Origin: a virus
Reading direction: 5' to 3' (one strand)
Virus record (IMG/VR): IMGVR_UViG_3300040801_002290
Coordinates: 130,022 to 194,021 of that record
DNA length: 64,000 bases
Shown: positions 35,382 through 64,000 of the stretch, piece after piece
Position numbering within the stretch: position 1 is the stretch's first letter
Layout of the letters: every line of letters starts with the position of its first letter
Notes under the pieces: model-generated
Told to the model about the DNA's origin: nothing
Seen by the model: the letters and a program-made list of their open reading frames with translations, nothing else
Databases searched by the model: none
Program-made: the position numbers and the translations under genes

Positions 35382-36962
35382 TTAGACTGGGTTTGAATAG
35401 TTTCTATCAAATCTTTGCTGTACTGGAATAGTTACACCGTTAGAGGTTAGTGTAGAAGAGATACCCAACCACACATATTGTATGTTGTGTATGTATACGT
35501 CAACATCAACATCTCCTGTGTAGTTATATTGGAAGGAGAAGGTAGTTCCAGAGCTTTCCACACCTGCCAATTCTACACCGTCGCTCTTTCTGTAGACTCT
35601 GACCTCGCTGCCAGCGACAAGACCAGTAACAGAAAAAGTCTGAGTATTCTGAACCGTCGTTGTTGCTCCTGTGCCGTTAGTTACGCTAATACCAGAACCA
35701 CCGGACACCTGTAGTGTTACAGAGCCTCCTGAGTTGTTGTAAATAGCGGCGTTTGTGGTGCCGTCTGCCCCGTAGCCTGTAAAAATAAAATTAGAAAGTA
35801 CATATGTACCAGGAGAAGTGATTAGAATCGCGTGTCCAGTACCGCCAGATTGGAAGGTAATTCCGCTCATTTGCGTTGTATCAGTGAGAAGCATCGCTCC
35901 ACCCGTGTCGGTAGAGTTGGAAATTGTGTTATTTCTAAACTCAACCACTCCGGGAGAGATTCTTCCACATCCCTGGAAGGCGTTACCCGTAACTACGTGA
36001 CTTTGCGCCGCCGTGTCCGTGCCAAACTGAACGGTACTACTGATTTCGGTTACGGTGTTTCCGGTAAAGGTAAAGGTATTAACGGAGTTTGTGTTGAATT
36101 CAAGTCGGGCAAAGGGACCGGCTGTCGTGATGGTAGAGTTTCTTAGAATGAAGTGTGTTTCTCCGGTGCCGCCTTGAACTTTTAGATAGTATTTATCATT
36201 GCTGATGTTTCTGTTCTCAAAAGCTATAACAATACCCGAGTCCTCAAACCAACTATTTCCCGTAGCCGCTCCGAAAGTAAGTGGCCCTTGCAATCCATAA
36301 ACACCTGTAATCAATTCTCTTATTACTCCGTGTGCTTTGTTTGCAGCAGTGCTTCCATCCTCGGTAGATACCTCAAGGAAATTTCCCCTGTCTCCCGTCG
36401 TGCCGCCAGTAACAACTAATCCGTCATTACCAATACGTATAATATCCACCGCAACGTTAATACCTCCACCCAATCCCTTGGACTGAGTGGTAAAGTCTGA
36501 GCCAAATTGTGTAATAGCTGCCAGGTTTAGGTTGGCGAAGCTACCGGCGCGAGCTACGGTAAGACCGTTTGTGTTCATGGTAGAAGCCTGAGAGCCGTCT
36601 AGAACAAGACAATCCCAGTCTGGAGCAACTTCAAGGTGGGTAAATGTTTTTCTGTCTCCACCGGCCATTTTGAAACTTACTCTGTCTGTACCGTCACCTA
36701 AATGCATCGCATGGGCCGGGTTAGCATCAAGCCAGGAACCTTGCTGAGCGAAATTGTTAGACCAGATATAAATCAGAGTATTTGAAACGTTTCTTGCTGT
36801 AGTCGTAAAGTAAACTTGGCCAGTAGTAATGTTAAAAGTAGATACTACTGAGTTCGTTCCCTCCATAACAACAGTGTTAGAGGTTCCACCGGAGCCAGTC
36901 CACCCAGTAGTGTTTTCAGCGTTGGTTATCGTTGTCCTAGTGTCGGTTACGACTACTGCCAT
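35382..36962 (-). CDS. Virion structural protein with beta-helix-like segment
   Basis: 526 aa, Thr/Gly/Asn-rich, ends DRNYSNPV. Confidence 0.6.
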   Translation of the reverse strand: MAVVVTDTRTTITNAENTTGWTGSGGTSNTVVMEGTNSVVSTFNITTGQVYFTTTARNVSNTLIYIWSNNFAQQGSWLDANPAHAMHLGDGTDRVSFKMAGGDRKTFTHLEVAPDWDCLVLDGSQASTMNTNGLTVARAGSFANLNLAAITQFGSDFTTQSKGLGGGINVAVDIIRIGNDGLVVTGGTTGDRGNFLEVSTEDGSTAANKAHGVIRELITGVYGLQGPLTFGAATGNSWFEDSGIVIAFENRNISNDKYYLKVQGGTGETHFILRNSTITTAGPFARLEFNTNSVNTFTFTGNTVTEISSTVQFGTDTAAQSHVVTGNAFQGCGRISPGVVEFRNNTISNSTDTGGAMLLTDTTQMSGITFQSGGTGHAILITSPGTYVLSNFIFTGYGADGTTNAAIYNNSGGSVTLQVSGGSGISVTNGTGATTTVQNTQTFSVTGLVAGSEVRVYRKSDGVELAGVESSGTTFSFQYNYTGDVDVDVYIHNIQYVWLGISSTLTSNGVTIPVQQRFDRNYSNPV

Positions 36963-54657: not shown

Positions 54658-54772
54658 ATTGCCAAACTAAGCACACTTAAATTAGGATACTACTATCCTA
54701 GTTTATTTATTCCACCCCCCCCCCATTTTTTACTCATATATAAAAATATTACCACCCTACTTTTTCGCAAAC

Positions 54773-54949
54773 AAACCCCCAGGGGACCCAATTTTTCTGT
54801 AAATAACCCCACCCCATAATACCCACCTATAATACCCACCTAAACTTATAATACCCACCTAAAACTTTTTAATACGTATGAGATAGATGAGGGGAGGGGG
54901 CGGCTTTCAGAAAAAAGGGACTCCCGGTTTGCTTTTAAACCCCCAGGGG
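54773..54949. repeat. Junction repeat structure: AAACCCCCAGGGG x2 flanking ATAATACCCACCT x3
   Basis: Direct 13-mers at 54773-54785 and 54937-54949. ATAATACCCACCT at 54816, 54829 and 54848, plus a degenerate copy at ~54802. Confidence 0.85.
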
Positions 54950-55029
54950 TGGGTGCAGCACATTCGGCCAAAGTTTGCAATGTCGTCTACATCACACCTT
55001 TCTCACCCCACCTCTGCTACGATAATGGC

Positions 55030-55209
55030 ATGAAGAACCCGTTTCGCCGCCCCACCATTCCAGCGTCCGAGTCCATGGTCGTCACGCTGCACAAGATGGA
55101 CAAGGCTTCGCTCATCGCACTCAAGCCTAAGTGGGCTAAGATTTTCGGCCCCACGTCGCCTCAAGTGGCACGAATCCAGGCGCTTATTACTTCCAGGGAG
55201 AATGCATGA
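55030..55209 (+). CDS. Small early protein (59 aa)
   Basis: Start revised to MKNPF...; TG-extended TACGAT 6 nt before ATG. Confidence 0.7.
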   Translation: MKNPFRRPTIPASESMVVTLHKMDKASLIALKPKWAKIFGPTSPQVARIQALITSRENA

Positions 55210-55274
55210 GCCCGAGAAATTCGGGCTGCACAAAGTGTCAAAAGATTTGTGAGAATTTGATTAAGGTTTTCGTG

Positions 55275-55303
55275 TTGACAGCCAAACGCACACCGGCTAT
55301 ACT
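55275..55303 (+). promoter_or_regulatory. Class I promoter TTGACA-17-TATACT driving a non-coding unit
   Basis: Near-consensus sigma70 promoter; predicted TSS ~55310. Confidence 0.8.
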
Positions 55304-55376
55304 TACTTCATCAGGAGGCACCCCTGCTGCGAAAGTACCAGGAACACGGTGCGAGACTGATAACAAAGGATAGCAA

Positions 55377-55447
55377 GTCGGTCTAGTGTAAGAGCAGCAC
55401 GGGCGTCTGTTGGCGCTACAGGAGCGGTGCAAATCCGCAACCGAGAC
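55377..55447 (+). tRNA. Degenerate tRNA-like cloverleaf, GTT (Asn) in the anticodon-like loop
   Basis: T8-A9-G10 pattern; D-arm GTGT/GCAC; anticodon stem GGCGT/GCGCT with a 6-nt loop CTGTTG; T-arm GCGG-TGCAAAT-CCGC. Imperfect acceptor stem, no CCA. Confidence 0.45.
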
Positions 55448-55455
55448 TGCGAACA

Positions 55456-55491
55456 TCCCCTCAGAGTCATGACCTGGGGGGACTTCCTTTT
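55456..55491 (+). terminator. Intrinsic terminator closing the ncRNA
   Basis: TCCCCTCAG-9 nt-CTGGGGGGA followed by CTTCCTTTT. Confidence 0.65.
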
Positions 55492-55551
55492 GACGACTTT
55501 GCCCGCCCAGAAAATGAGAAGAATATGAGAATTACGTTAAGGTTTTAGGGG

Positions 55552-55580
55552 TTGACGCCATTAGCCCCAGGGAGTACGAT
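55552..55580 (+). promoter_or_regulatory. Class I leaderless promoter TTGACG-17-TACGAT
   Basis: 6 nt before ATG 55587. Other class I -35 boxes are at 56410, 57372, 59266 and 60449, each exactly 17 bp from the -10. Confidence 0.8.
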
Positions 55581-55586
55581 TAGAGC

Positions 55587-55928
55587 ATGAAAGACGGCCT
55601 CTACCACCGCGACCTCGGCCTTCCCGTTACCCTCGGCTTCGCCACGATGCTCCGCTACTCGCCCCACGCGATTGAGGAAGCCTCCAGCGACAAGTACGGC
55701 AACCTCGACCTTCCGAAGTCCATCGGGACGCATGAGGCCGAAGTTATCGAAGTCGAAGTACGCAACGGCAAGCCCTACAAGGCCCTTCTTCGCAAGCCTT
55801 ACGACGACCGACGCGATATCTGCCTCGTCGTCCTTCTGGACCGTGGCATCGTCAAGACCGTCTGGTGCAACCTTCGCAGCGACAAGCATCGCACGCTGGA
55901 TACCTCAAAGTACATGATGAGCGCATAA
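55587..55928 (+). CDS. Conserved-looking phage protein, possible RelE/DUF4258-like RNase fold
   Basis: 113 aa; YSPHAIEEA...IVKTVW pattern. Fold call is tentative. Confidence 0.6.
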   Translation: MKDGLYHRDLGLPVTLGFATMLRYSPHAIEEASSDKYGNLDLPKSIGTHEAEVIEVEVRNGKPYKALLRKPYDDRRDICLVVLLDRGIVKTVWCNLRSDKHRTLDTSKYMMSA

Positions 55929-56011
55929 GGTTGTTTCAAGCCCGAGAAATTCGGGCCGGGGGAATTCGTCAAAACTCATCATTCTCATCTAATAGTGGCA
56001 TATCTTTAGTC

Positions 56012-56212
56012 ATGGCTACTTGGCATCAACGAAAGTCGGGCGTTACCCTTTACGATGAGTCGAAGTTCGCGGTCGTTATAGACCCGCCCAACCAGTGTAG
56101 AGCCACCGTCCTGTTCTTCACACGGGAGTCTGCTGAGCGTTATGTGGACAACTACGTGTCTAAGCACCCTGCGAATAAGCCCTACACCTACATTCTCAAG
56201 CCTGCGAGGTAA
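56012..56212 (+). CDS. Small early protein (66 aa)
   Basis: Start revised to MATWHQ...; TATCTT 5 nt before ATG. Confidence 0.7.
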   Translation: MATWHQRKSGVTLYDESKFAVVIDPPNQCRATVLFFTRESAERYVDNYVSKHPANKPYTYILKPAR

Positions 56213-56214
56213 CC

Positions 56215-56373
56215 ATGTGTTGTGATGCTATCTACAACGACGAGCCGATTGTGGGGGAATGCCCCGAGTGCGGTGCGCCTGTGGATGCCGATGGGGACGC
56301 TGTTGGAGAACACTGCGGATACTCTCCGCGATGCCCCGTGTGCGGTGACAGCCCGTGTGATGAGTCCTGCTGA
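56215..56373 (+). CDS. 52-aa Cys-rich putative metal-binding protein (not in ORF track)
   Basis: MCCDAIYNDEPIVGECPECGAPVDADGDAVGEHCGYSPRCPVCGDSPCDESC; 9 Cys; GAGG SD. Confidence 0.75.
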   Translation: MCCDAIYNDEPIVGECPECGAPVDADGDAVGEHCGYSPRCPVCGDSPCDESC

Positions 56374-56456
56374 AAAGCAGGCCGCACATTACGTCAAAAA
56401 TGTCAACGGTTGACTCCTGGGCTGGAATAGGTCATACTGTCATTAGGAGGCACACA

Positions 56457-56690
56457 ATGTTCATGTTCGCCCCGATGGTCGAGGTTCGCTTGCCCCGCAA
56501 CACGTCCCCTCTGTTCACCGTGCGCGGCCCTCTTGACTCCGAAGGCAACCTGGACGACTCTCGTCTCGCTTCTGAGATTAAGCGAGAAATGGGTTTCGAT
56601 GGGAAGGTTTCTCTCTCCTGGCTCTCTGCTGATGAGTTGGGCGTGGTGACTCACAACACCCAACCTGTTCTGACTATCCGAGTGGAATAG
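56457..56690 (+). CDS. Small early protein (77 aa)
   Basis: TTGACT-17-CATACT promoter and AGGAGG SD; start revised to 56457. Confidence 0.7.
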   Translation: MFMFAPMVEVRLPRNTSPLFTVRGPLDSEGNLDDSRLASEIKREMGFDGKVSLSWLSADELGVVTHNTQPVLTIRVE

Positions 56691-56789
56691 TTTAATAAAG
56701 CCCGCGAGTTTATGCGGGCTGCACATTTGGTCAAAAAATCAAGTGGCGCACTTCACATCTGTTAGCCCCTGGTGTGCTAGTATTAGTAC

Positions 56790-56927
56790 ATGGATAGCAC
56801 CCTGTTCCTCACCGAGAACTCTGGCTACATCATCGTTGGTGTGTTCTTCGCTGGGATTTTCGCCCTCATCCTCGCTACGGGTGTCGCTGACCTCATCGCC
56901 GGGTTCTTCCGAAAGGACGAGGAATAA
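56790..56927 (+). CDS. 45-aa single-pass membrane protein (not in ORF track)
   Basis: MDSTLFLTENSGYIIVGVFFAGIFALILATGVADLIAGFFRKDEE; TAGTAT 6 nt before ATG; TAATG coupling. Confidence 0.7.
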   Translation: MDSTLFLTENSGYIIVGVFFAGIFALILATGVADLIAGFFRKDEE

Positions 56928-57130
56928 TGCTCTACTACAGCCAAACCGACTACGATATCGAAATGGCCGGTCGTAAGGCCCGTGAAAAAGCGCGTGAGGA
57001 TTTCTACGCCGGTAAGCCCTACGAGAACCCTTACAGCCCTTCGGATGTTATTCATTACACCTACGAAATGGAATGGCAGCACCTCTCAAAGATGGTTGAA
57101 GTTGACATGGAGTTTGAGAAGAATGACTAA
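56927..57130 (+). CDS. Small early protein (67 aa)
   Basis: Coupled ORF; GAGG SD. Confidence 0.7.
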   Translation: MLYYSQTDYDIEMAGRKAREKAREDFYAGKPYENPYSPSDVIHYTYEMEWQHLSKMVEVDMEFEKND

Positions 57131-57326
57131 CGAATACGGAACCTTCGATGTCGAAATGACCCAGCGTGGATATTCCGTCCACAACTACATCGTCACCAAG
57201 ACGAGCGGTGAATGGCCTGAAAAGCGTGCTGTTGCCGCCATGTGTGATGACCGTAGCCTGGATTACTTCGGCTTCGACGTTTCCATCACGGACGACCGTG
57301 CGTCAGTTGCAATCTATGTAGACTGA
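57123..57326 (+). CDS. Small early protein (67 aa)
   Basis: Start revised to MTNEYG...; overlaps previous stop. Confidence 0.65.
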   Translation: MTNEYGTFDVEMTQRGYSVHNYIVTKTSGEWPEKRAVAAMCDDRSLDYFGFDVSITDDRASVAIYVD

Positions 57327-57406
57327 TGCACATATATGCGGGCCGCACAAAAGGTCAAAAATGTCAACGGGTTGACACTAGGGACTCTAAGGATTACACT
57401 TAGTGC

Positions 57407-57586
57407 ATGGCCACCATTCAGCGTTACGTCGTTGACCTCTCAACCGAGCAGTTGGACTTCTTGGAAGAGTTGGTGAATGCTCATGGTTTTCGTGTCGCCA
57501 TGGATGCTTTCCTCATTGATGAGACTTACTCGGCCCTGCGCTCTGCACGTCCTAGCCTTACCATCATTCGACCGGACGAGGAGTGA
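57407..57586 (+). CDS. 59-aa early protein (not in ORF track)
   Basis: MATIQRYVVDL...; TTGACA-17-TACACT-6-ATG. Confidence 0.75.
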   Translation: MATIQRYVVDLSTEQLDFLEELVNAHGFRVAMDAFLIDETYSALRSARPSLTIIRPDEE

Positions 57587-57588
57587 TA

Positions 57589-57759
57589 ATGAACTACTCT
57601 ATTCATCGCTTGCATCGTGACGAGTATGGTACGGTACTCTGGACCACCGAGTACGGCCCCTACACCAAAGAGCAGGCTGATAGGCTCGCTGCTGAGTTTG
57701 AGCAGGACTACGGGTATGAGTGTGTAGTCCACTGTGAAGATAAGTCCATGCATAATTAA
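57589..57759 (+). CDS. 56-aa early protein (not in ORF track)
   Basis: MNYSIHRLHRDEYG...; GAGGAG SD. Confidence 0.7.
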   Translation: MNYSIHRLHRDEYGTVLWTTEYGPYTKEQADRLAAEFEQDYGYECVVHCEDKSMHN

Positions 57760-57827
57760 GTTTATGCACGGCGGCGAAAATCGTCAAATCTCACAATTCT
57801 CATTTAATCAGGGAGTAGCATTACTAC

Positions 57828-58115
57828 ATGGCAACCGTTAAAGAGCATTACGCCTACATCACCCCGCCCCCGCCCATTGACTACGTTGAGGTCGATTTGG
57901 AGGACCGGTACAACCTGGACCTCTACGTCGCCAAGACGCTGGTCGAGACTCACCTCGCCAAAGGTGTCGAAGTTCGACTCAGAAACGGTGAGTGGTTCGC
58001 CAACGTGCCTCGCGGTATCTACTTCCTCGTTAACGCTGGAGAGAAGCTCCAGTCGATTGTTCTGCTCCGTGCCTTCGCCGCGAAGGTTTACTTGGACTCC
58101 AAGAACCACCAATAG
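57828..58115 (+). CDS. Small early protein (95 aa)
   Basis: TAGCAT 6 nt before ATG, class II box upstream. Confidence 0.75.
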   Translation: MATVKEHYAYITPPPPIDYVEVDLEDRYNLDLYVAKTLVETHLAKGVEVRLRNGEWFANVPRGIYFLVNAGEKLQSIVLLRAFAAKVYLDSKNHQ

Positions 58116-58126
58116 CTTCTCAGTTG

Positions 58127-58156
58127 AAATAGGGGGTATTTTCTGCCCCCTATTTT
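58127..58156. terminator. Intrinsic terminator (possibly bidirectional)
   Basis: AAATAGGGGG-9 nt-CCCCCTATTTT; the T-run is the start of a reverse 21-bp motif. Confidence 0.75.
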
Positions 58157-58214
58157 GACGTTTTACCCCGGCCATTCTCACATTTCTCATCATTAGCTCG
58201 ATTACGATTTACTC

Positions 58215-58403
58215 ATGACACGAGAAGAGTTCCTCAGCACCCACGCGGATGCCATGTTGATTGAGATGGAAGTCGAAACATTCGGGGCGGAAGAATGGAC
58301 CGTCCGTAAGGTGTTCGACCTCGCCGGTTTCTACGTCGATGGTAAGGAGCTTCGCGTAGACCTCACCAAGCGCATTATGGAACGCCTCGTGGAGATGCTG
58401 TAA
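58215..58403 (+). CDS. Small early protein (62 aa)
   Basis: TACGAT 6 nt before ATG. Confidence 0.7.
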   Translation: MTREEFLSTHADAMLIEMEVETFGAEEWTVRKVFDLAGFYVDGKELRVDLTKRIMERLVEML

Positions 58404-58618
58404 TGGACACGTACGATATCGAAGTGCTGCTGGATAGGTTGGCGGCGGCTATGAAGGCCCGTGAGGTTGCCGAAAAAGCCCGAGAAGCCTACGTGTATCG
58501 CTACCACGGGTGCGATGAGGAGTGGCAGTACGAGCGTGCGAAGGAGCGGTTGGCGGAAACTCTCACTCTTCTCATTCCTGGGTCGGATACACTAAATCAT
58601 CAAAGCACGGAGTGGTGA
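58403..58618 (+). CDS. Small early protein (71 aa)
   Basis: TAATG coupling. Confidence 0.7.
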   Translation: MDTYDIEVLLDRLAAAMKAREVAEKAREAYVYRYHGCDEEWQYERAKERLAETLTLLIPGSDTLNHQSTEW

Positions 58619-58701
58619 GGTCAGTAACCCAAAGTACGCAGCACAGACTCGGAAATGGCAGAAAACCCACCACTTAGAAAGTATCGAGAGAGAAAATATC
58701 A

Positions 58702-58731
58702 GAGGAGGCAACATAGCCTCCTCACTTTTTT
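58702..58731 (+). terminator. Intrinsic terminator
   Basis: GAGGAGGC-AACATA-GCCTCCTC-ACTTTTTT. Confidence 0.8.
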
Positions 58732-58791
58732 GACGGTTTGGCCCGCCCTGGGCTCTCATACTTCTAATAAACTATAGAGCGACAATGGGGC

Positions 58792-59031
58792 ATGACCATC
58801 ACCGCACCCGCAACGTACAACGATGGTACGCCTCTCTCGCACCCCGAAACCTTCATGGCAGTCTACCTTAGGGCTATTCGCAAGTTTCGCCGCGAACCCA
58901 ACAGGCGCGAGGCCATGTATCTCTTGGACGAACTGACCTCGGGCTTTACTGACTCCAACGAGGAGGAGTGCGCCGCCTATGCTGTGTGGAGGGCGCATCG
59001 TGAGGTTTACGGCCCGGAAAAGGAACCGTAA
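58792..59031 (+). CDS. Small early protein (79 aa)
   Basis: Class II box and GACAAT 5 nt before ATG. Confidence 0.7.
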   Translation: MTITAPATYNDGTPLSHPETFMAVYLRAIRKFRREPNRREAMYLLDELTSGFTDSNEEECAAYAVWRAHREVYGPEKEP

Positions 59032-59118
59032 TAAAACTCACATAATTAAAGCCCCAATCGGGGCAGCGATTTTCGTCAAATCTCATCATTCTCACAAGCC
59101 TGGGGACAATAATAAGAC

Positions 59119-59229
59119 ATGACCAACCGAATCACTGACCCCCGCATCGGTCACTGGGGCTACTGGCGTGACGACTACCGCAAGGGCACCGACACCACTC
59201 GCATCCGGGTTCGCGTCCTGCCCCGCTAA
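59119..59229 (+). CDS. 36-aa basic peptide (not in ORF track)
   Basis: MTNRITDPRIGHWGYWRDDYRKGTDTTRIRVRVLPR; occupies one motif-bounded cassette. Confidence 0.6.
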   Translation: MTNRITDPRIGHWGYWRDDYRKGTDTTRIRVRVLPR

Positions 59230-59300
59230 GGGCAGGGCCGCACATTTGGTCAAAAAAGTCAAGACTTGACACCAGGATACGGGGGACGTATCATACTCCT

Positions 59301-59555
59301 ATGAACGATTACTTCGATGACCTCAACCCGACTTTCCGCGACGAAGAAGCTTTCATTCTCGGCAACGAGGACCTGTACGACGAGGATGGTGTTTTCATCT
59401 TCGAAGAAGGGGAAGTCAACGAAGACGACTTGGACCCTGTTGACCTTGACGCCGACGACGACGACTTCCCGGAGATGTTGGAATACGACGACTGGCAGGA
59501 CGACATGTACGCCGACGGTGAGGGCTTCTACAGCAACGAGGAACCAGACTTCTAG
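59301..59555 (+). CDS. Extremely acidic 84-aa protein (DNA-mimic candidate)
   Basis: 22 Asp + 13 Glu, 1 Arg, 0 Lys; TTGACA-17-TATCAT-6-ATG. Confidence 0.75.
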   Translation: MNDYFDDLNPTFRDEEAFILGNEDLYDEDGVFIFEEGEVNEDDLDPVDLDADDDDFPEMLEYDDWQDDMYADGEGFYSNEEPDF

Positions 59556-59623
59556 CCCGCATTGCGGGCGGGCCAACCCGTCAAAACTCACACTTCTCAT
59601 CTAGAAGGGAGTATACTTCTTTT

Positions 59624-59785
59624 ATGAGCAACCCACACCTGGCAGTTCACATCAGCCGTCAAGCCACCCGTCGCATCCTCATTCTCCAGCCCCGTAACAG
59701 CCTCGGGCAGTTCCTGTCCCCGGTTCGCCCCACCCTCGCTCCTGCGACCGTGCATGTCACTCTGAACGGTGGTGTTATTCGGTGA
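59624..59785 (+). CDS. 53-aa early protein (not in ORF track)
   Basis: MSNPHLAVHISRQATRR...; TATACT 6 nt before ATG; GTGA overlap. Confidence 0.65.
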   Translation: MSNPHLAVHISRQATRRILILQPRNSLGQFLSPVRPTLAPATVHVTLNGGVIR

Positions 59786-59970
59786 AGGAGAAGGTGTGTT
59801 GCATCTGCGGTGAGCCTCCTGGGGCGCTAGACAAGCTGTGGCCCTATGGACGGGGGGAGTATATCTGCTCGTCCTGCTCAATCACCGAGAGCATTCACGC
59901 CGATAGTACTGAGATGTACGAGTATGACGAGTACGAGACATGGGGAGACGAGAAGTCTTATAACCACTGA
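59782..59970 (+). CDS. C4 zinc-finger-like small protein
   Basis: CCICG...YICSSC followed by an acidic tail. Confidence 0.6.
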   Translation: MKEKVCCICGEPPGALDKLWPYGRGEYICSSCSITESIHADSTEMYEYDEYETWGDEKSYNH

Positions 59971-59996
59971 GAGGGGCGAAAGCCCCTTTCTTTTTT
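59971..59996 (+). terminator. Intrinsic terminator
   Basis: GAGGGGC-GAAA-GCCCCTTTC-TTTTTT. Confidence 0.8.
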
Positions 59997-60050
59997 GACG
60001 ATTTCGGCGGCTTCTCACACTTCTCATACTGTATCCTGTATCCTGTGTTT

Positions 60051-60161
60051 ATGGGACCTTACCTCTCGACCTATTACGACTACGACAGCGCCCGTGGCCC
60101 AGAGTTTCGCCGTGGCTCCTTCATCGCCTACCAGCGCCGCTTTCATCGCGTGCGCTTCTAA
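60051..60161 (+). CDS. 36-aa peptide (not in ORF track)
   Basis: MGPYLSTYYDYDSARGPEFRRGSFIAYQRRFHRVRF; TATCCT 6 nt before ATG. Confidence 0.6.
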   Translation: MGPYLSTYYDYDSARGPEFRRGSFIAYQRRFHRVRF

Positions 60162-60170
60162 GGAGAGGTC

Positions 60171-60410
60171 ATGTACCTTATTCAGAGCCTGAGTGCCGGG
60201 CATACGCCCAGCGGCAACCCGAAGCGAGTTTTCGTGGTCTATGGTGAGTATTGTGAAGTTGTTGGGGCTTTCGATGAGGGTTACAACGGGCTCGACGCGG
60301 TGCCTCAGAAGTTCCTTTCTCAGCACATGCTTCTCCCTACGGTGAAGGTGCCTCACAGCGAGTACAAGTTCTGGCTGAAACGAGGCAAGGCTATGCAGGA
60401 ACGGGTGTAG
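60171..60410 (+). CDS. Small early protein (79 aa)
   Basis: GGAGAGG SD. Confidence 0.7.
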   Translation: MYLIQSLSAGHTPSGNPKRVFVVYGEYCEVVGAFDEGYNGLDAVPQKFLSQHMLLPTVKVPHSEYKFWLKRGKAMQERV

Positions 60411-60483
60411 AAATACACCCCGCACACTTCGTCAAAATAGTCAAGATGTTGACACCAGGGCTTGGAAAGCGTACTATATACCT

Positions 60484-60663
60484 ATGAACATCGCGTACAA
60501 GAAGTTGGCCACCGGAGAATGGTTCGTTGAGGCTTGGATGTACACTTCGGACTACGAGATGGTGCATACCTCGTGCATCGACCCTGACCGTCGTATGGCA
60601 TCCTGGAAGGCGTTCAGCGCACTCACTTGCCGATTGCCCCTCACCTGGCCCCTTCGCTGGTGA
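60484..60663 (+). CDS. 59-aa early protein (not in ORF track)
   Basis: MNIAYKKLATGEW...; TTGACA-17-TACTAT-6-ATG. Confidence 0.7.
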   Translation: MNIAYKKLATGEWFVEAWMYTSDYEMVHTSCIDPDRRMASWKAFSALTCRLPLTWPLRW

Positions 60664-60751
60664 GGTCGGCCCCCAAAACGGTCAAAATGTCAAGCCCTAC
60701 AGGTGTGAAGTATCTCACACTTTTCCCATATTCGTGTGATAGGCTTTGATT

Positions 60752-60913
60752 ATGAAAAAGCAGCACCTAGGCACTATCAAGTTCGACCCGCGAGATGCCA
60801 CTAAGGGGCTTGGGCACGAATACGGTGCCGGTCGCGGCACTAAGGTTCTTCGTCACAAGACCTCTCGCCGGTCTAAGGACCGACTTCGTAAGGAGTTGAC
60901 TCAGCATGATTGA
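60752..60913 (+). CDS. 53-aa basic protein (not in ORF track)
   Basis: MKKQHLGTIKFDPRD...RRSKDRLRKEL; TAGGCT 6 nt before ATG. Confidence 0.65.
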   Translation: MKKQHLGTIKFDPRDATKGLGHEYGAGRGTKVLRHKTSRRSKDRLRKELTQHD

Positions 60914-61064
60914 CCCCTTCGTGGCTATGATGGTTTGGCCCCAGTCCACCGACACGGGCGACGAGACTGACTGGGAAGCAGTCCGGGCCGAGGAAGAAGT
61001 TGTTCGCCCCGCCACCCCTGAGGATTGGGAAGAGTTCTGGAATGATTTCGGAGGAGAAGAATAA
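60906..61064 (+). CDS. 52-aa acidic, Trp-rich protein (not in ORF track)
   Basis: MIDPFVAMMVWPQSTDTGDETDWEAVRAEEE...EDWEEFWNDFGGEE; AAGGAG SD. Confidence 0.65.
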   Translation: MIDPFVAMMVWPQSTDTGDETDWEAVRAEEEVVRPATPEDWEEFWNDFGGEE

Positions 61065-61192
61065 TGTATCGACTGACCTTTGTGAATGAGTCGTCCGTCC
61101 TGTGGGCCGCTGATATCGAAACCCTTCGACAGTACGTCTACGATGCCGAGGTGACGGAATACGACATTGTGTTCATTCCGAATGAGTGGTGA
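61064..61192 (+). CDS. 42-aa protein (not in ORF track)
   Basis: MYRLTFVNESSVLWAAD...; GGAGG SD and TAATG coupling. Confidence 0.65.
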   Translation: MYRLTFVNESSVLWAADIETLRQYVYDAEVTEYDIVFIPNEW

Positions 61193-61219
61193 GGCGGGGA
61201 AACCCGCCTTGCTTTTTTT
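61192..61219 (+). terminator. Intrinsic terminator
   Basis: AGGCGGG-GAAA-CCCGCCTT-GC-TTTTTTT. Confidence 0.8.
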
Positions 61220-61274
61220 GACGGTTTGTGCGGCCCGCTCACACTTCTCATAAAGAAAATGGGTACTCTAAAGC

Positions 61275-61622
61275 ATGACTAAGTATCTGCGAGTGGATGA
61301 AACCGGCGCTGTCACTGAACTTTCTGTTTCTTCTCTGGAAGATTTGCAGACTGCTGTTGGTGGATACATTACCGGTGCCTGGGAAGGCAAGTCTCTCCCG
61401 TCTGGTACTACCGTCTTCGCTAACGATGAGGGCCTGCTTCTCGACATGCGGCCTAACCTCGTCGCGTCCATGGTCGTTGGCCATGTCCTGGTTGGCCCTG
61501 TCCTTTTCGGCGGGCCTGCCGACTCCGAAGGAGATGTGACGGATATCACGAAGCGAGCCGAGGAACTCATCTATGCTATGTCTCTCGCCGTCAGCGGCCC
61601 TCACACTTCTCAGAATAGCTAG
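61275..61622 (+). CDS. DUF3846-like protein
   Basis: SLEDLQTAVGGYI...VFANDEGLLLDMRPN..AS...LVGPVL. Confidence 0.65.
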   Translation: MTKYLRVDETGAVTELSVSSLEDLQTAVGGYITGAWEGKSLPSGTTVFANDEGLLLDMRPNLVASMVVGHVLVGPVLFGGPADSEGDVTDITKRAEELIYAMSLAVSGPHTSQNS

Positions 61623-61636
61623 GAGTACCATACCTT

Positions 61637-61894
61637 ATGGCAAACATCAAGGACGTGGCCGAGCAGTTCATGGAAGGCATCAACACGATGTCTCTCAACC
61701 CGAAGGGCTTTGTCGAGGTTGTGACGGCTGACCACCGCTCTCTGCAACAGTCGGCCTTCCGACTCTTCGCGGCCTGTATTCAAGAATGGGCTACGCACGA
61801 GTTCTACGACGCCCGCAACGAGGCAACGGTCACCCTTTCGAAGCGCATCGTGGATGCCCTCGGGGACGACATCGAACGAATCCCCTTCATCTAA
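61637..61894 (+). CDS. Small early protein (85 aa)
   Basis: Class II promoter embedded in the 3' end of the previous gene; TACCAT 5 nt before ATG. Confidence 0.7.
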   Translation: MANIKDVAEQFMEGINTMSLNPKGFVEVVTADHRSLQQSAFRLFAACIQEWATHEFYDARNEATVTLSKRIVDALGDDIERIPFI

Positions 61895-61989
61895 TATGCA
61901 CAAGCCCGCAACACTATGCGGGCGGCGCAAAGGGTCAAAATTCATAATTCTCACAATCTAATAGACTAGCATTAGGGCAGGAGGAAAAC

Positions 61990-62235
61990 ATGCTTACCCC
62001 AGTCTGGATTGTTGTTGCAATCGTCGCCACCGCTCGCGGTGCCCGATGGAAGCCTTGGGTGGTTGCTGGCATCATGCTTCTCGTCAACTTTGGTGTGGGG
62101 TTCACGCTCGGTTTGGCCGGTTATAGACTCTATGAGACTCAAGACTTTCTCATGGTAGTTGGTTTTGTCACGGAACTTATTATTCTCTTTGCCGCGACTT
62201 ACTACGTGTTTCGTCCTAAGCCCTCATCTTTCTAA
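61990..62235 (+). CDS. Small multi-pass membrane protein
   Basis: 81 aa, three hydrophobic segments; AGGAGG SD. Confidence 0.7.
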   Translation: MLTPVWIVVAIVATARGARWKPWVVAGIMLLVNFGVGFTLGLAGYRLYETQDFLMVVGFVTELIILFAATYYVFRPKPSSF

Positions 62236-62260
62236 TATTCCGAGGAGTTAGACTAACAGC

Positions 62261-62461
62261 ATGAAAAACTACGTCACATACGAGGACTTTCTCCCCGCTC
62301 TCAAGTCCAGTCGAACCCTCACGGTGACTACAGACTATAATCGTCCGGATTCAGAGACTCCCTTCGTGAATTCTATCGTCCTAAACCGCATGAAGAGCGA
62401 GGGACGCATTAAGGACACTAAGGTTGGGGCTGGAAAGCACCTGGTGGAAATGCTTCGATAA
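62261..62461 (+). CDS. Small early protein (66 aa)
   Basis: TAGACT 6 nt before ATG. Confidence 0.65.
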   Translation: MKNYVTYEDFLPALKSSRTLTVTTDYNRPDSETPFVNSIVLNRMKSEGRIKDTKVGAGKHLVEMLR

Positions 62462-62649
62462 TGCCAGACATTCGAAGCTTCTTTGAAGACGTGGGTTACG
62501 AAGTACTGAGTATTTCAACAAACCGAAAAGGTGAATTAATTGTACGGACTGAGAGAGGTGAGTTTAATGTAGGGAAGAAGATTTTCCCCGCTGAATTCGA
62601 AGACACTCAGGTCCAGAAGATTCTAGCTGAGCTAACACCGTCTTTTTGA
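62461..62649 (+). CDS. Small early protein (62 aa)
   Basis: TAATG coupling; the stop TGA lies inside a reverse 21-bp motif. Confidence 0.65.
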   Translation: MPDIRSFFEDVGYEVLSISTNRKGELIVRTERGEFNVGKKIFPAEFEDTQVQKILAELTPSF

Positions 62650-62702
62650 CGGTTTAGCCCGCGCCTCACACTTCTCATAATGATTGGGATTACTATTAGG
62701 TC

Positions 62703-63128
62703 GTGAAAAGCCTCAAAGATTTCGTATTGGAGACCGTTCAGGAAGCGTGTGACCTGTACGGTGTTTCTTTTCCCGGCGGCGTGAATGTAAAGTACAGGGA
62801 GGACATGTCCGCCTCTGCTTTCTTTACCCCTATGGAGCAGTCTATTACTGTGAATGTTCGTCAGTGCAGGACTAAGAGAGATGTTATCTTCGCCATTGGT
62901 CACGAGGTTGGTCACGCTAGGCAGCATAAGCGTCTGAAAGGCAACATGCTCTTTCTTTATCAAATGGAACTTGCTCTTTATGGATACAATACCGCCCCCA
63001 TGGAGATTGAGGCTGACAAGGTGGGTTTTGATTTCGAAGGGAAAAAGAGTTACAAGAACGAAGTTCTCTACAATGATGTGCCCTCCGTGTTCATCTCTCG
63101 CAAGATGGCTCGTGCTGGAACCTTTTGA
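62703..63128 (+). CDS. HEXXH zinc-metallopeptidase-like protein
   Basis: FAIGHEVGHARQH plus downstream PMEIEAD; TACTAT 6 nt before GTG. Confidence 0.65.
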   Translation: MKSLKDFVLETVQEACDLYGVSFPGGVNVKYREDMSASAFFTPMEQSITVNVRQCRTKRDVIFAIGHEVGHARQHKRLKGNMLFLYQMELALYGYNTAPMEIEADKVGFDFEGKKSYKNEVLYNDVPSVFISRKMARAGTF

Positions 63129-63180
63129 CGGTTTCGGCAGCGGCTCATACTACTCATACAACTGTAGAGTATCTTTAGGT

Positions 63181-63360
63181 ATGGAACACCCGAGAATTGC
63201 TAAGCGGCGTGAGTATTTGGAGGACAAGCTCTTTCGCACCGAAGAAGCGTTGGAACTTGACCCCTACAACGAGAAGCTGCTGGCTCGTGCTAACAGGGTT
63301 GAGGAAGAACTTGAGACCCTGGACATGGAAGCGGCTGACCCTGCGGCTCACGGGTATTGA
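63181..63360 (+). CDS. 59-aa helical-hairpin protein
   Basis: Start revised to MEHPRIAKRR...; TATCTT 5 nt before ATG. Confidence 0.65.
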   Translation: MEHPRIAKRREYLEDKLFRTEEALELDPYNEKLLARANRVEEELETLDMEAADPAAHGY

Positions 63361-63381
63361 GGGGGAGAAATCCCCCTTTTT
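63359..63381 (+). terminator. Intrinsic terminator
   Basis: GAGGGGGA-GAAA-TCCCCCTT-TTT. Confidence 0.75.
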
Positions 63382-63433
63382 GACGTTTAGCGCGGCCCAC
63401 ATCTTTCTCATATAAACAGGAGTAGACTAGAGT

Positions 63434-63586
63434 ATGACATTCACCCTAGACAAGCGGCAAGAGAAGAACCTCAAGCGGATTCTGGCGTGGTTGATTCACA
63501 ACCGAACTATCGACCCTATGACTCAGGATGAGGCTAGAGAGTTGTACGCGGCGATTTCTAATGTTTCTCATAAGGCTGAGGGGTAA
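63434..63586 (+). CDS. 50-aa protein (not in ORF track)
   Basis: MTFTLDKRQEKNLKRILAW...; TAGACT 5 nt before ATG. Confidence 0.65.
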   Translation: MTFTLDKRQEKNLKRILAWLIHNRTIDPMTQDEARELYAAISNVSHKAEG

Positions 63587-63595
63587 TCTTAGAGC

Positions 63596-63826
63596 ATGGA
63601 AAACGACCTGGAGACCCAAGCCCGTATCCGCAACATGCCCGAGAATGCTCGTCAGGCCGACGGCTACCACGTTGCTCGCGCTATGATTCGCGGCGGTGGC
63701 TTTATGACCGCGCTTTCTGAGGCTTTTCGTCGGGCCGACTTGGATAACCGTCGTCTCATCTTCGCGTCCTGGGGCGATAGCATTCAGCACGAATGGGAAG
63801 CGTACCGTCGGCAGGGCGGCTGGTGA
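63596..63826 (+). CDS. Small early protein (76 aa)
   Basis: GGGFMTALSEAFRRADLDN motif; TAATCT 6 nt before ATG. Confidence 0.7.
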   Translation: MENDLETQARIRNMPENARQADGYHVARAMIRGGGFMTALSEAFRRADLDNRRLIFASWGDSIQHEWEAYRRQGGW

Positions 63827-63828
63827 CG

Positions 63829-63954
63829 ATGGGCAAGACCCGTCGCAAGTTCGATAAGGAACGGGGGAGTGAAAACCGCTCCCCCAAAAAGGAAAAGCAG
63901 CCCAGGCAGGAACGTCGTGAACTTAAGGAAAAACTTAAGGAGTACACTCGATGA
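63829..63954 (+). CDS. 41-aa highly basic protein (not in ORF track)
   Basis: MGKTRRKFDKERGSENRSPKKEKQPRQERRELKEKLKEYTR. Confidence 0.55.
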   Translation: MGKTRRKFDKERGSENRSPKKEKQPRQERRELKEKLKEYTR

Positions 63955-64000
63955 ACCCCGTTCTGTACGATGAGCTTCACGACGCCCTGTCGGATATCTA
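63951..64000 (+). CDS. Partial ORF at window edge
   Basis: ATGA overlap and AAGGAG SD; MNPVLYDELHDALSDI... Confidence 0.5.
   Translation, partial: MNPVLYDELHDALSDI

Follow-up and report, generated by a model that had tools for sequence, protein, structure and literature searches.

An asymmetric 21-bp site recurring in both orientations at the cassette joints of a phage early-gene array

The phage analysed here, G000, is represented by a 194,021-bp IMG/VR virus record (IMGVR_UViG_3300040801_002290), and the stretch under study, hereafter the window, comprises the last 64 kb of that record (64,000 nucleotides, positions 130,022 to 194,021). The portal protein shares 49% identity over 61% of its length with those of the Thermus phages phiYS40, TMA and YS40_Isch, and judging from this sequence comparison G000 is a distant relative of phiYS40. 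Towards the end of the window, from 55000 to 64000, lies an array of early-gene cassettes which consists of about 34 small co-directional genes, all on the plus strand and encoding proteins of 36–141 residues (gene starts being our own calls from the sequence), together with one RNA cassette. The boundaries between cassettes are occupied by an asymmetric 21-bp site which is found in either direction, and which is the subject of this analysis. The array block has a G+C content of 50–54%, versus 41–46% in the remaining genome. Indeed, an early block whose G+C content lies 5–10 points above that of its own genome is seen in G000 (55000–64000) as well as in two uncultured relatives, G001 (202 kb; block at 35–50 kb) and G002 (120 kb; block at 55–81 kb), with which G000 also shares the promoter element described below as box B. 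One idea for this composition is that early genes match the codon use of the host before the phage tRNAs are made.

The array is cut by the end of the window, which is also the end of the record, and is not finished at 63398. Two independent and near-identical contigs from other samples, L172 (99.97% identity to G000 across 3,285 bp) and L190 (99.86% across 11.2 kb, bridging the record end), extend it by about 9 kb and add 8 further copies of the site. As seen in L172 (3286–12413) and in L190, the record end is an assembly break: past position 64000 of the window there are about 4 kb of additional joints, followed by a tightly packed operon for which the Pfam calls include GP88, Phage_T4_Y00F, DUF5419, SprT-like and RVT_3.

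Anchoring on GTCAAA[AT] recovers 20 copies of the site in the window, 12 forward and 8 reverse, corresponding to one per ~409 bp, and this recount agrees with the earlier note on this sequence, which had described 20 copies in these orientations at intervals of about 400 bp. The consensus is GGGCnGCnn(A/T)3nnGTCAAAA, and a search with the pattern GGGCNGCNNAAANNGTCAAAA, allowing up to 2 mismatches, returns 16 matches, all within 55223–63398, where 0.01 are expected from shuffled sequences. A weight matrix built from the 20 sites and run over the whole record yields no further match of at least 12 bits, the other 185 kb being empty; the lack of full copies previously noted for the first 54 kb of the window is thereby extended to the rest of the record, and the motif is confined to the array rather than equally common genome-wide. 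According to the same matrix the information resides at positions 2–4, 6, 7 and 14–21, positions 10–12 are A or T, and positions 5, 8, 9 and 13 are free. In fact, the GTCAAAA end and the GGGC/GC positions are nearly invariant, positions 1–7 being G+C and the trinucleotide GTC fully invariant, the centre is A/T-rich and variable, and the 21-mer is devoid of self-complementarity. The pentamers GTCAA/TTGAC are likewise unevenly placed, as 31 of the 44 present in the array fall in the 22% of it that is non-coding. Scans with the exact pattern gave only single matches at chance level, 68 and 13 in IMG/VR and 12 among 185,579 genomes, so that neither a distant carrier nor a site-rich host genome was found; an initial megablast of the array against cultured phages returned no match.

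The joints between cassettes have a common order, namely a hairpin, the 21-mer and a promoter. A stable hairpin is predicted in 18 of the 20 joints, the two lacking one being those at 62644 and 63123, where the site overlaps the stop codon of the upstream gene, and the gap from hairpin to site ranges from −7 to +4 in 19 of the 20 sites and amounts to +12 at 62644. Terminator and fold predictions bear out the distinct integration of the two orientations which the earlier note had proposed. Where the site is reversed, its TTTT doubles as the T-run of a canonical terminator: this is the case at 55488..55508, where it belongs to the terminator of the RNA cassette, at 58153..58173 and 58728..58748 (3 and 6 nt before box B, respectively), at 61216..61236 (1 nt before box B), and at 59993..60013 and 63378..63398, which abut box B. 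The other two reverse copies, at 62644..62664 and 63123..63143, both of which also abut box B, hold the upstream genes' TGA stop codons, at 62647–62649 and 63126–63128. In forward copies GGGC closes the hairpin as its 3′ arm and no T-run follows, as in the copy at 55223..55243; the exact duplication of AGCCCGAGAAATTCGGGC that had been pointed out is present at 55209 and at 55939. A further forward copy, at 56716..56736, also has a hairpin in front.

A promoter-like element follows all 20 sites, being either TTGACA-17-TAnnnT or box B-N11/12-TAnnnT. The former, class A (TTGAC(A/G/T)-17-TAnnnT), is found at 6 joints only. Four of the class A joints are short, and in them a second GTCAA stands between the site and the −35 element, resulting in a GTCAA-N3/4-TTGAC dyad over the −35; these are the forward copies at 56379..56399 (N3), 57340..57360 (N4, TTGACA-17-TACACT), 59235..59255 (N3, TTGACA-17-TATCAT) and 60417..60437 (N4, TTGACA-17-TACTAT). 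The other two class A joints are long: 31 and 43 nt separate the site from the −35, and an ATGAGAA...ATTAAGGTTT word comes after the site. The copy at 55223..55243 precedes such a long promoter, with an ATGAGAA-like word, ATTAAGGTTT and TTGACA-17-TATACT, and that at 55488..55508, which has the same orientation at the orthologous slot of contig L127, precedes TTGACG-17-TACGAT. More generally, strong class A promoters share the upstream word ATGAGAA-N4/5-(A)TTAAGGTTT-N5/6-TTGAC, observed in the window at 55244–55280 and 55509–55556, in G001 at 35957–36003, in G002 at 81.4 kb, in L127 at 111–150 and in L128 at 2660–2700, and this word includes the reverse complement of the box B half TTCTCAT.

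In class B promoters box B, CTCAYAnTTCTCAT, stands 11–12 nt ahead of TAnnnT, which itself lies 5–6 nt before the ATG, and therefore most messages are expected to be leaderless. In Deinococcus-Thermus, leaderless expression with the −10 box next to the open reading frame is common (PMC12340547). The promoter-side end of the site is 35–43 nt, mostly 37–38 nt, from the ATG at class B joints in both orientations, and a site that abuts box B at a set distance from the ATG therefore fills about −58 to −38. Besides the reverse copies already listed, box B is abutted by the forward copies at 55954..55974 (box B CTCATCATTCTCAT), 57769..57789, 59061..59081, 59566..59586 and 61920..61940, the last of which faces a variant of the box, whereas the forward copy at 60667..60687 has both a second GTCAA and a box-B-like promoter after it. 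In the lineage as a whole, box B is linked to 25 sites, 14 forward and 11 reverse, with an offset that is mostly 0. The box itself occurs about 25 further times in G000 outside the array, for example in the tRNA region, and always without the 21-mer; at the start of the record this promoter heads the tRNA genes. It is also present in G001 (33 matches) and G002 (14), versus 0–1 in controls, and is not found in phiYS40. In the latter (G004) another word, TAGCGTTTACTT, is clustered, with 13–16 of its 21–22 copies (depending on the 9-mer counted) in one 20-kb span at 84–105 kb, where it is probably a minus-strand promoter element.

The site is kept in relatives. Retrieval through two array proteins yielded closer relatives than G001 and G002, namely the contigs L127, L128, L173 and L186–L189 (63–90% identity), all carrying the same 21-mer family, and the non-redundant total for the lineage is 55 sites, 38 forward and 17 reverse. 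At orthologous slots the orientation is the same. In some of these copies the core loosens to YCAAAA, while GCACA is better kept. With respect to L173, 10 of 10 substitutions within 21-mers fall on low-information positions; for example, at 61920..61940 L173 keeps the GGGCGGC and GTCAAAA ends with a changed centre. In this comparison the 21-mers are 88% identical, third codon positions 78%, and first and second positions 91.5%. A distinct scenario is found in the more remote relatives, as G001 and G002 both lack the 21-mer. In G001 the equivalent slot, which follows hairpins at about 10 nt and precedes promoters of both types, holds a dyad, TTGTGAAA-N2-4-TTCACAA (TGTGA-N6-TCACA), of which 24 of 26 copies lie at 34.4–49.3 kb, within its early block; this cluster could reflect the use or the titration of a host CRP. 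Distant homologues of the g55587 family (L125, L129–L171) have no comparable repeat, and the repeated words of L125, L134 and L155, considered as counterparts of the site, turned out to be codon-level or tandem coding repeats.

Cassette content differs among these phages in a manner bounded by the joints. Of the ~34 array proteins, homologues were found for only 6 in G001 and for 3 in G002, with a partly altered order. The clearest case is strain L187, which is 90% identical to G000 and lacks the cassette at 63144..63377 (+; box B promoter, the 59-residue gene g63181 and a hairpin) that is present in G000, L172 and L173. Its junction, the one junction resolved to the base, is a hybrid which follows the 63123 copy through TTTTGACGGTTTC and then the 63378 copy from GCGGCCC on; these two copies are the left and right partners of the deletion, and the crossover therefore took place within two 21-mers of the same direction. 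Breakpoints of cassette loss, which the earlier note had suggested comparing with the motif, do in this instance fall inside it. Further differences are observed in the slot after g62703, which is polymorphic and is filled by other genes in both L186 and the P0005 contig; in L128, where the homologues of g55587 and g56012 are linked by a ribosome-binding site with no joint between, the homologue of g57828 is under class A rather than class B, and that of g55030 is located elsewhere; and in L188, which has additional replacements between joints. No inverted cassette was found in G000 or in ~17 kb of its relatives, minus-strand matches being restricted to the site itself. Clearly, the repeated joints provide short homology for the loss, gain and replacement of cassettes, as a passive side effect. 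The proposal that the sites allow cassettes to be shuffled by recombination is thus upheld in part: the hybrid junction and the site-bounded differences in content speak for it, but not for a dedicated site-specific system, since interspersed inverted copies gave no inverted cassette.

Cassette turnover of this type looks like recombination on short homology as it occurs in the promoter-early stem-loop (PeSL) cassettes of T4-type phages (Arbiol et al. 2010, PMC2839356; Comeau et al. 2014, PMC4122927). The earlier note knew of no described element with this layout, a statement which does not hold for the joint as a whole, since joints of hairpin and promoter, placed in an early region full of ORFans, correspond to the PeSL cassettes (PMC2839356, PMC4122927). 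In both cases short composites, each combining a stem-loop with an early promoter, recur tens of times in a hypervariable early region rich in ORFans, and the junctions of indels and replacements between related phages lie inside the repeats (here L187, together with the slots of L128, L186, L188 and P0005). There are also differences: the G000 lineage is distantly related to phiYS40 and is not of T4 type, it uses two promoter classes, one of which replaces the −35 by a phage-specific box, and its genes are mostly leaderless, whereas PeSLs have a Shine-Dalgarno sequence, a sigma-70-type promoter and an AT-rich upstream region. Moreover, G000 adds between hairpin and promoter a conserved asymmetric 21-bp site in either direction. 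What is new with respect to PeSLs is that the site is flippable, that there are two promoter classes and that the layout is leaderless, and it is only for the flippable 21-mer within the joint that we could find no described counterpart. Because box B and leaderless promoters dominate and the relatives are of phiYS40 type, we consider the joints to be a variant of PeSLs rather than strict members.

The explanation towards which we lean, if only modestly, is that the joints are a terminator-promoter variant of PeSLs in which the 21-mer is a putative protein docking site, singling out the early array for shared control. The suggestion of a DNA-level signal stands, as the asymmetric site is found both ways at the same place while the genes run one way, is not self-complementary and does not match the RNA cassette. 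Indeed, the occurrence of an asymmetric site in both directions among co-directional genes points to a signal in the DNA and not in the transcript, and, since the site works in either direction, the docking of a protein is the most likely function. This is further supported by the two conserved blocks around an A/T centre, with substitutions on free positions, by the restriction of the site to the array even though the same core promoters are used elsewhere, and by the dyad which the sister phage has in the same slot, together with the GTCAA dyad over the −35. On the evidence of these sequences, a protein-binding site controlling the early region is plausible. A sequence-specific protein would read the two blocks, GGGCnGC and GTCAAAA, across the A/T-rich centre, and such a putative reader, a phage or a host protein, could be a heteromer or a monomer with two domains. 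In this manner the site would mark about 28 promoters of the early array, of both classes, for common control, unlike the same core promoters elsewhere. A timed shut-off would be favoured over activation, because GTCAA recurs as the GTCAA-N3/4-TTGAC dyad over a −35 of host type.

Since the site must be present anyway, its ends may have been reused by the joint: in reverse copies the T-run would complete an intrinsic terminator, and in forward copies GGGC would close a hairpin lacking a T-run. This reuse by the terminator suggests that orientation probably decides between termination, in reverse copies, and read-through into the next cassette, in forward copies.

Several observations weigh against a docking site. 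No binding protein was identified: almost none of 31 array proteins match Pfam, searches of these and of 10 neighbours against Pfam and PHROG gave no DNA-binding candidate, and the array proteins are ORFans with no DNA-binding Pfam domain. A reader of the ParB/parS kind or a phage CRP-like one was considered and rejected, as no ParB or CRP-type helix-turn-helix protein is encoded in G000, G001 or G002, and no transcription factor was found in phiYS40 (PMC4124052). The gap from site to −35 in class A varies (10–11, 31 or 43 nt), which argues against strict activator geometry. In addition, G002 has hairpin-promoter joints with nothing in between, and the dyad of G001 goes with the hairpin more closely than with the promoter. 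Finally, intergenic identity to L173 is 87.7% overall, not above the coding identity of 87.0%, and recombination that keeps repeats alike could mimic selection.

These last points also favour the possibility that the 21-mer has no factor of its own and is simply the best-kept core of the joint, homogenised by recombination or gene conversion and supplying only homology for shuffling; the hybrid junction of L187 inside two 21-mers, the exchange of cassettes at joint-bounded slots and the behaviour of PeSLs as recombination-homology repeats (PMC2839356, PMC4122927) are in line with it. We nevertheless hold it to be unlikely, as conversion should keep whole joints alike, whereas only the two blocks of the site are invariant while its centre, the hairpins and the flanks differ. 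Also, inverted and direct copies share one consensus, which simple crossover cannot achieve without inverting genes, and in the sister phage this place is taken by another site, which is dyad-symmetric. A more active role of recombination, with the sites as targets of a dedicated site-specific recombinase of integron or invertase type that moves cassettes, would account for one site per cassette boundary and for a deletion junction inside the site. However, forward and reverse copies are interspersed and yet neither the phage nor ~17 kb of relatives shows an inverted cassette, the sites are neither palindromic nor attC-like, the cassettes have their own promoters, and no recombinase lies next to the array, which makes this extremely improbable. 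The resemblance to integrons amounts to small cassettes of one gene each, lined up with a repeat at every boundary; attC sites are imperfect palindromes, unlike the site of G000, which is used in both directions between cassettes that bear promoters and terminators, and no integrase-like match was obtained among the array neighbours tested. The earlier statement that the element is not attC-like is in agreement with all of this.

The site might instead be part of the promoter itself, an upstream element read by the host RNA polymerase, through a contact of the UP type with the alpha C-terminal domain or through phased A/T bending, and involving no regulator. The E. coli UP element occupies about −58 to −38. 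The 21-mer covers about this same region of box B promoters in both orientations, and it has two A/T runs, the central one of which may be A or T. On the other hand, 7–9 of its 21 positions form a conserved G+C block and GTC is invariant, so that the site is not A/T-rich throughout as a UP element is; box B promoters outside the array manage without it and G002 lacks any such site; and, while the UP position (−59 to −38) is the one seen with box B promoters, in class A the site is further upstream, behind the A/T-rich word ATTAAGGTTT that already fills this position. We therefore find this explanation rather improbable. It is also hard to see the motif as a by-product of terminators at the RNA level, or as a signal for DNA entry or packaging. 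Predicted terminators do take their T-run from reverse copies, and the array adjoins a repeat-rich junction at 54.66–54.98 kb, which is a possible genome end. But none of the 12 forward copies provides a T-run, a stable hairpin is missing from two reverse copies, reverse copies conserve the G+C block although it is unpaired there, and the sites extend over at least 12 kb with one per gene, unlike pac or cos, and for the DNA-entry signal put forward previously no evidence was found; these ideas are, in our view, next to untenable. Lastly, the sites could tag the array for a host global regulator that is hijacked or titrated, instead of being ordinary parts of the promoters, since G001 places ~24 consensus CRP-type dyads in the slot and encodes no CRP-type protein. 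In Thermus thermophilus, CRP drives the induction of cas genes on phage infection (PMC3497052, citing Agari 2010 and Shinkai 2007). The DNA that these phages express first would then bear two dozen sites of high affinity, which would couple early expression to a host alarm regulator, or titrate it and thereby blunt the induction of defence, and the 21-mer of G000 would be the equivalent site for a different, asymmetrically binding host factor. With respect to CRP/FNR-type operators (TGTGA-N6-TCACA), only the 24 dyads of G001 resemble them; the site of G000 is no dyad and shares with them the word CACAA. We regard such a tag for a host regulator as very unlikely.

Other roles were considered for the site and rejected. 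Its use as a promoter by a phage polymerase or sigma factor was dismissed mainly because the reverse copies would drive antisense transcription; no match to sigma region 2 was found. Single-subunit RNA polymerases gave no match either, but this family was equally unmatched in every control genome, which makes the search uninformative. The TTGAC of reverse copies is not likely to act as a plus-strand −35, as the paired −10 would be CACACT inside box B, unflagged by the promoter scan, and only 2 of the 12 forward copies were flagged by that scan as minus-strand promoters. An RNA-guide function was discarded because no more than 6 nt of the RNA cassette (55303–55495) match the site or its complement.

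Among known regulatory systems, the stoperators and operators of cluster A mycobacteriophages (L5 gp71 and the TipsytheTRex repressor) offer a comparison, with more than 20 asymmetric sites for one regulator at promoters and in short intergenic spaces (PMC9283540). There, a two-domain monomer reads the asymmetric site, a mode of recognition that would fit the two-block 21-mer; unlike the present sites, however, stoperators are oriented with transcription and lose function on reversal (PMC9283540), whereas the G000 lineage has 38 forward and 17 reverse sites among co-directional genes. They are, moreover, spread across the genome of a temperate phage, whereas those of G000 are found in the array only, between terminator and promoter. 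Both the C1 operators of phage P1, which are dispersed, asymmetric and present in both directions, and the KorB operators of plasmid RK2, which are palindromic and at varied distances from promoters, place ~12–20 sites for one regulator ahead of many transcription units, the regulators being global repressors linked to immunity or partition. In those systems the proteins are known, whereas G000 has no ParB-like gene and its sites are built into terminators.

Some further features of the locus deserve mention. Ahead of the array, the non-coding junction at 54658–54975 contains a poly-C run and three tandem ATAATACCCACCT units, and may represent an origin or one end of the genome; the record was tested for a terminal overlap between its end and its start and has none. 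The most widely conserved array gene, at 55587–55928, encodes an early protein of 113 residues with 45 metagenome homologues in very different G+C backgrounds and with no match in Pfam. An HExxH motif and a weak match to Peptidase_M48 (E 1.3e-4) are found in the early protein of 141 residues encoded at 62703–63128; it is conserved in both G001 and G002. The RNA cassette, which from promoter to terminator spans 55303–55490, has homologues in L127, where two are present (175–400 and 1240–1400); one of these bears GGTTCGAATCC, a T-arm-like word, and Rfam gives no match. Across 54–64 kb of the window Rfam gives no match, and there are no tRNA genes in the window.

A 21-bp site present in ~28 copies and confined to one array is a direct bait for a transcription factor in a phage related to phiYS40. 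It allows one to test whether genes for host takeover are switched as a unit, in a lineage with leaderless messages and a phage-specific promoter box. The joints also indicate that shuffling of the PeSL style, described for T4-type phages, operates in a distant phage group too, and that one obligatory site can serve three purposes, as a putative protein site, as part of a terminator and as a recombination seam.

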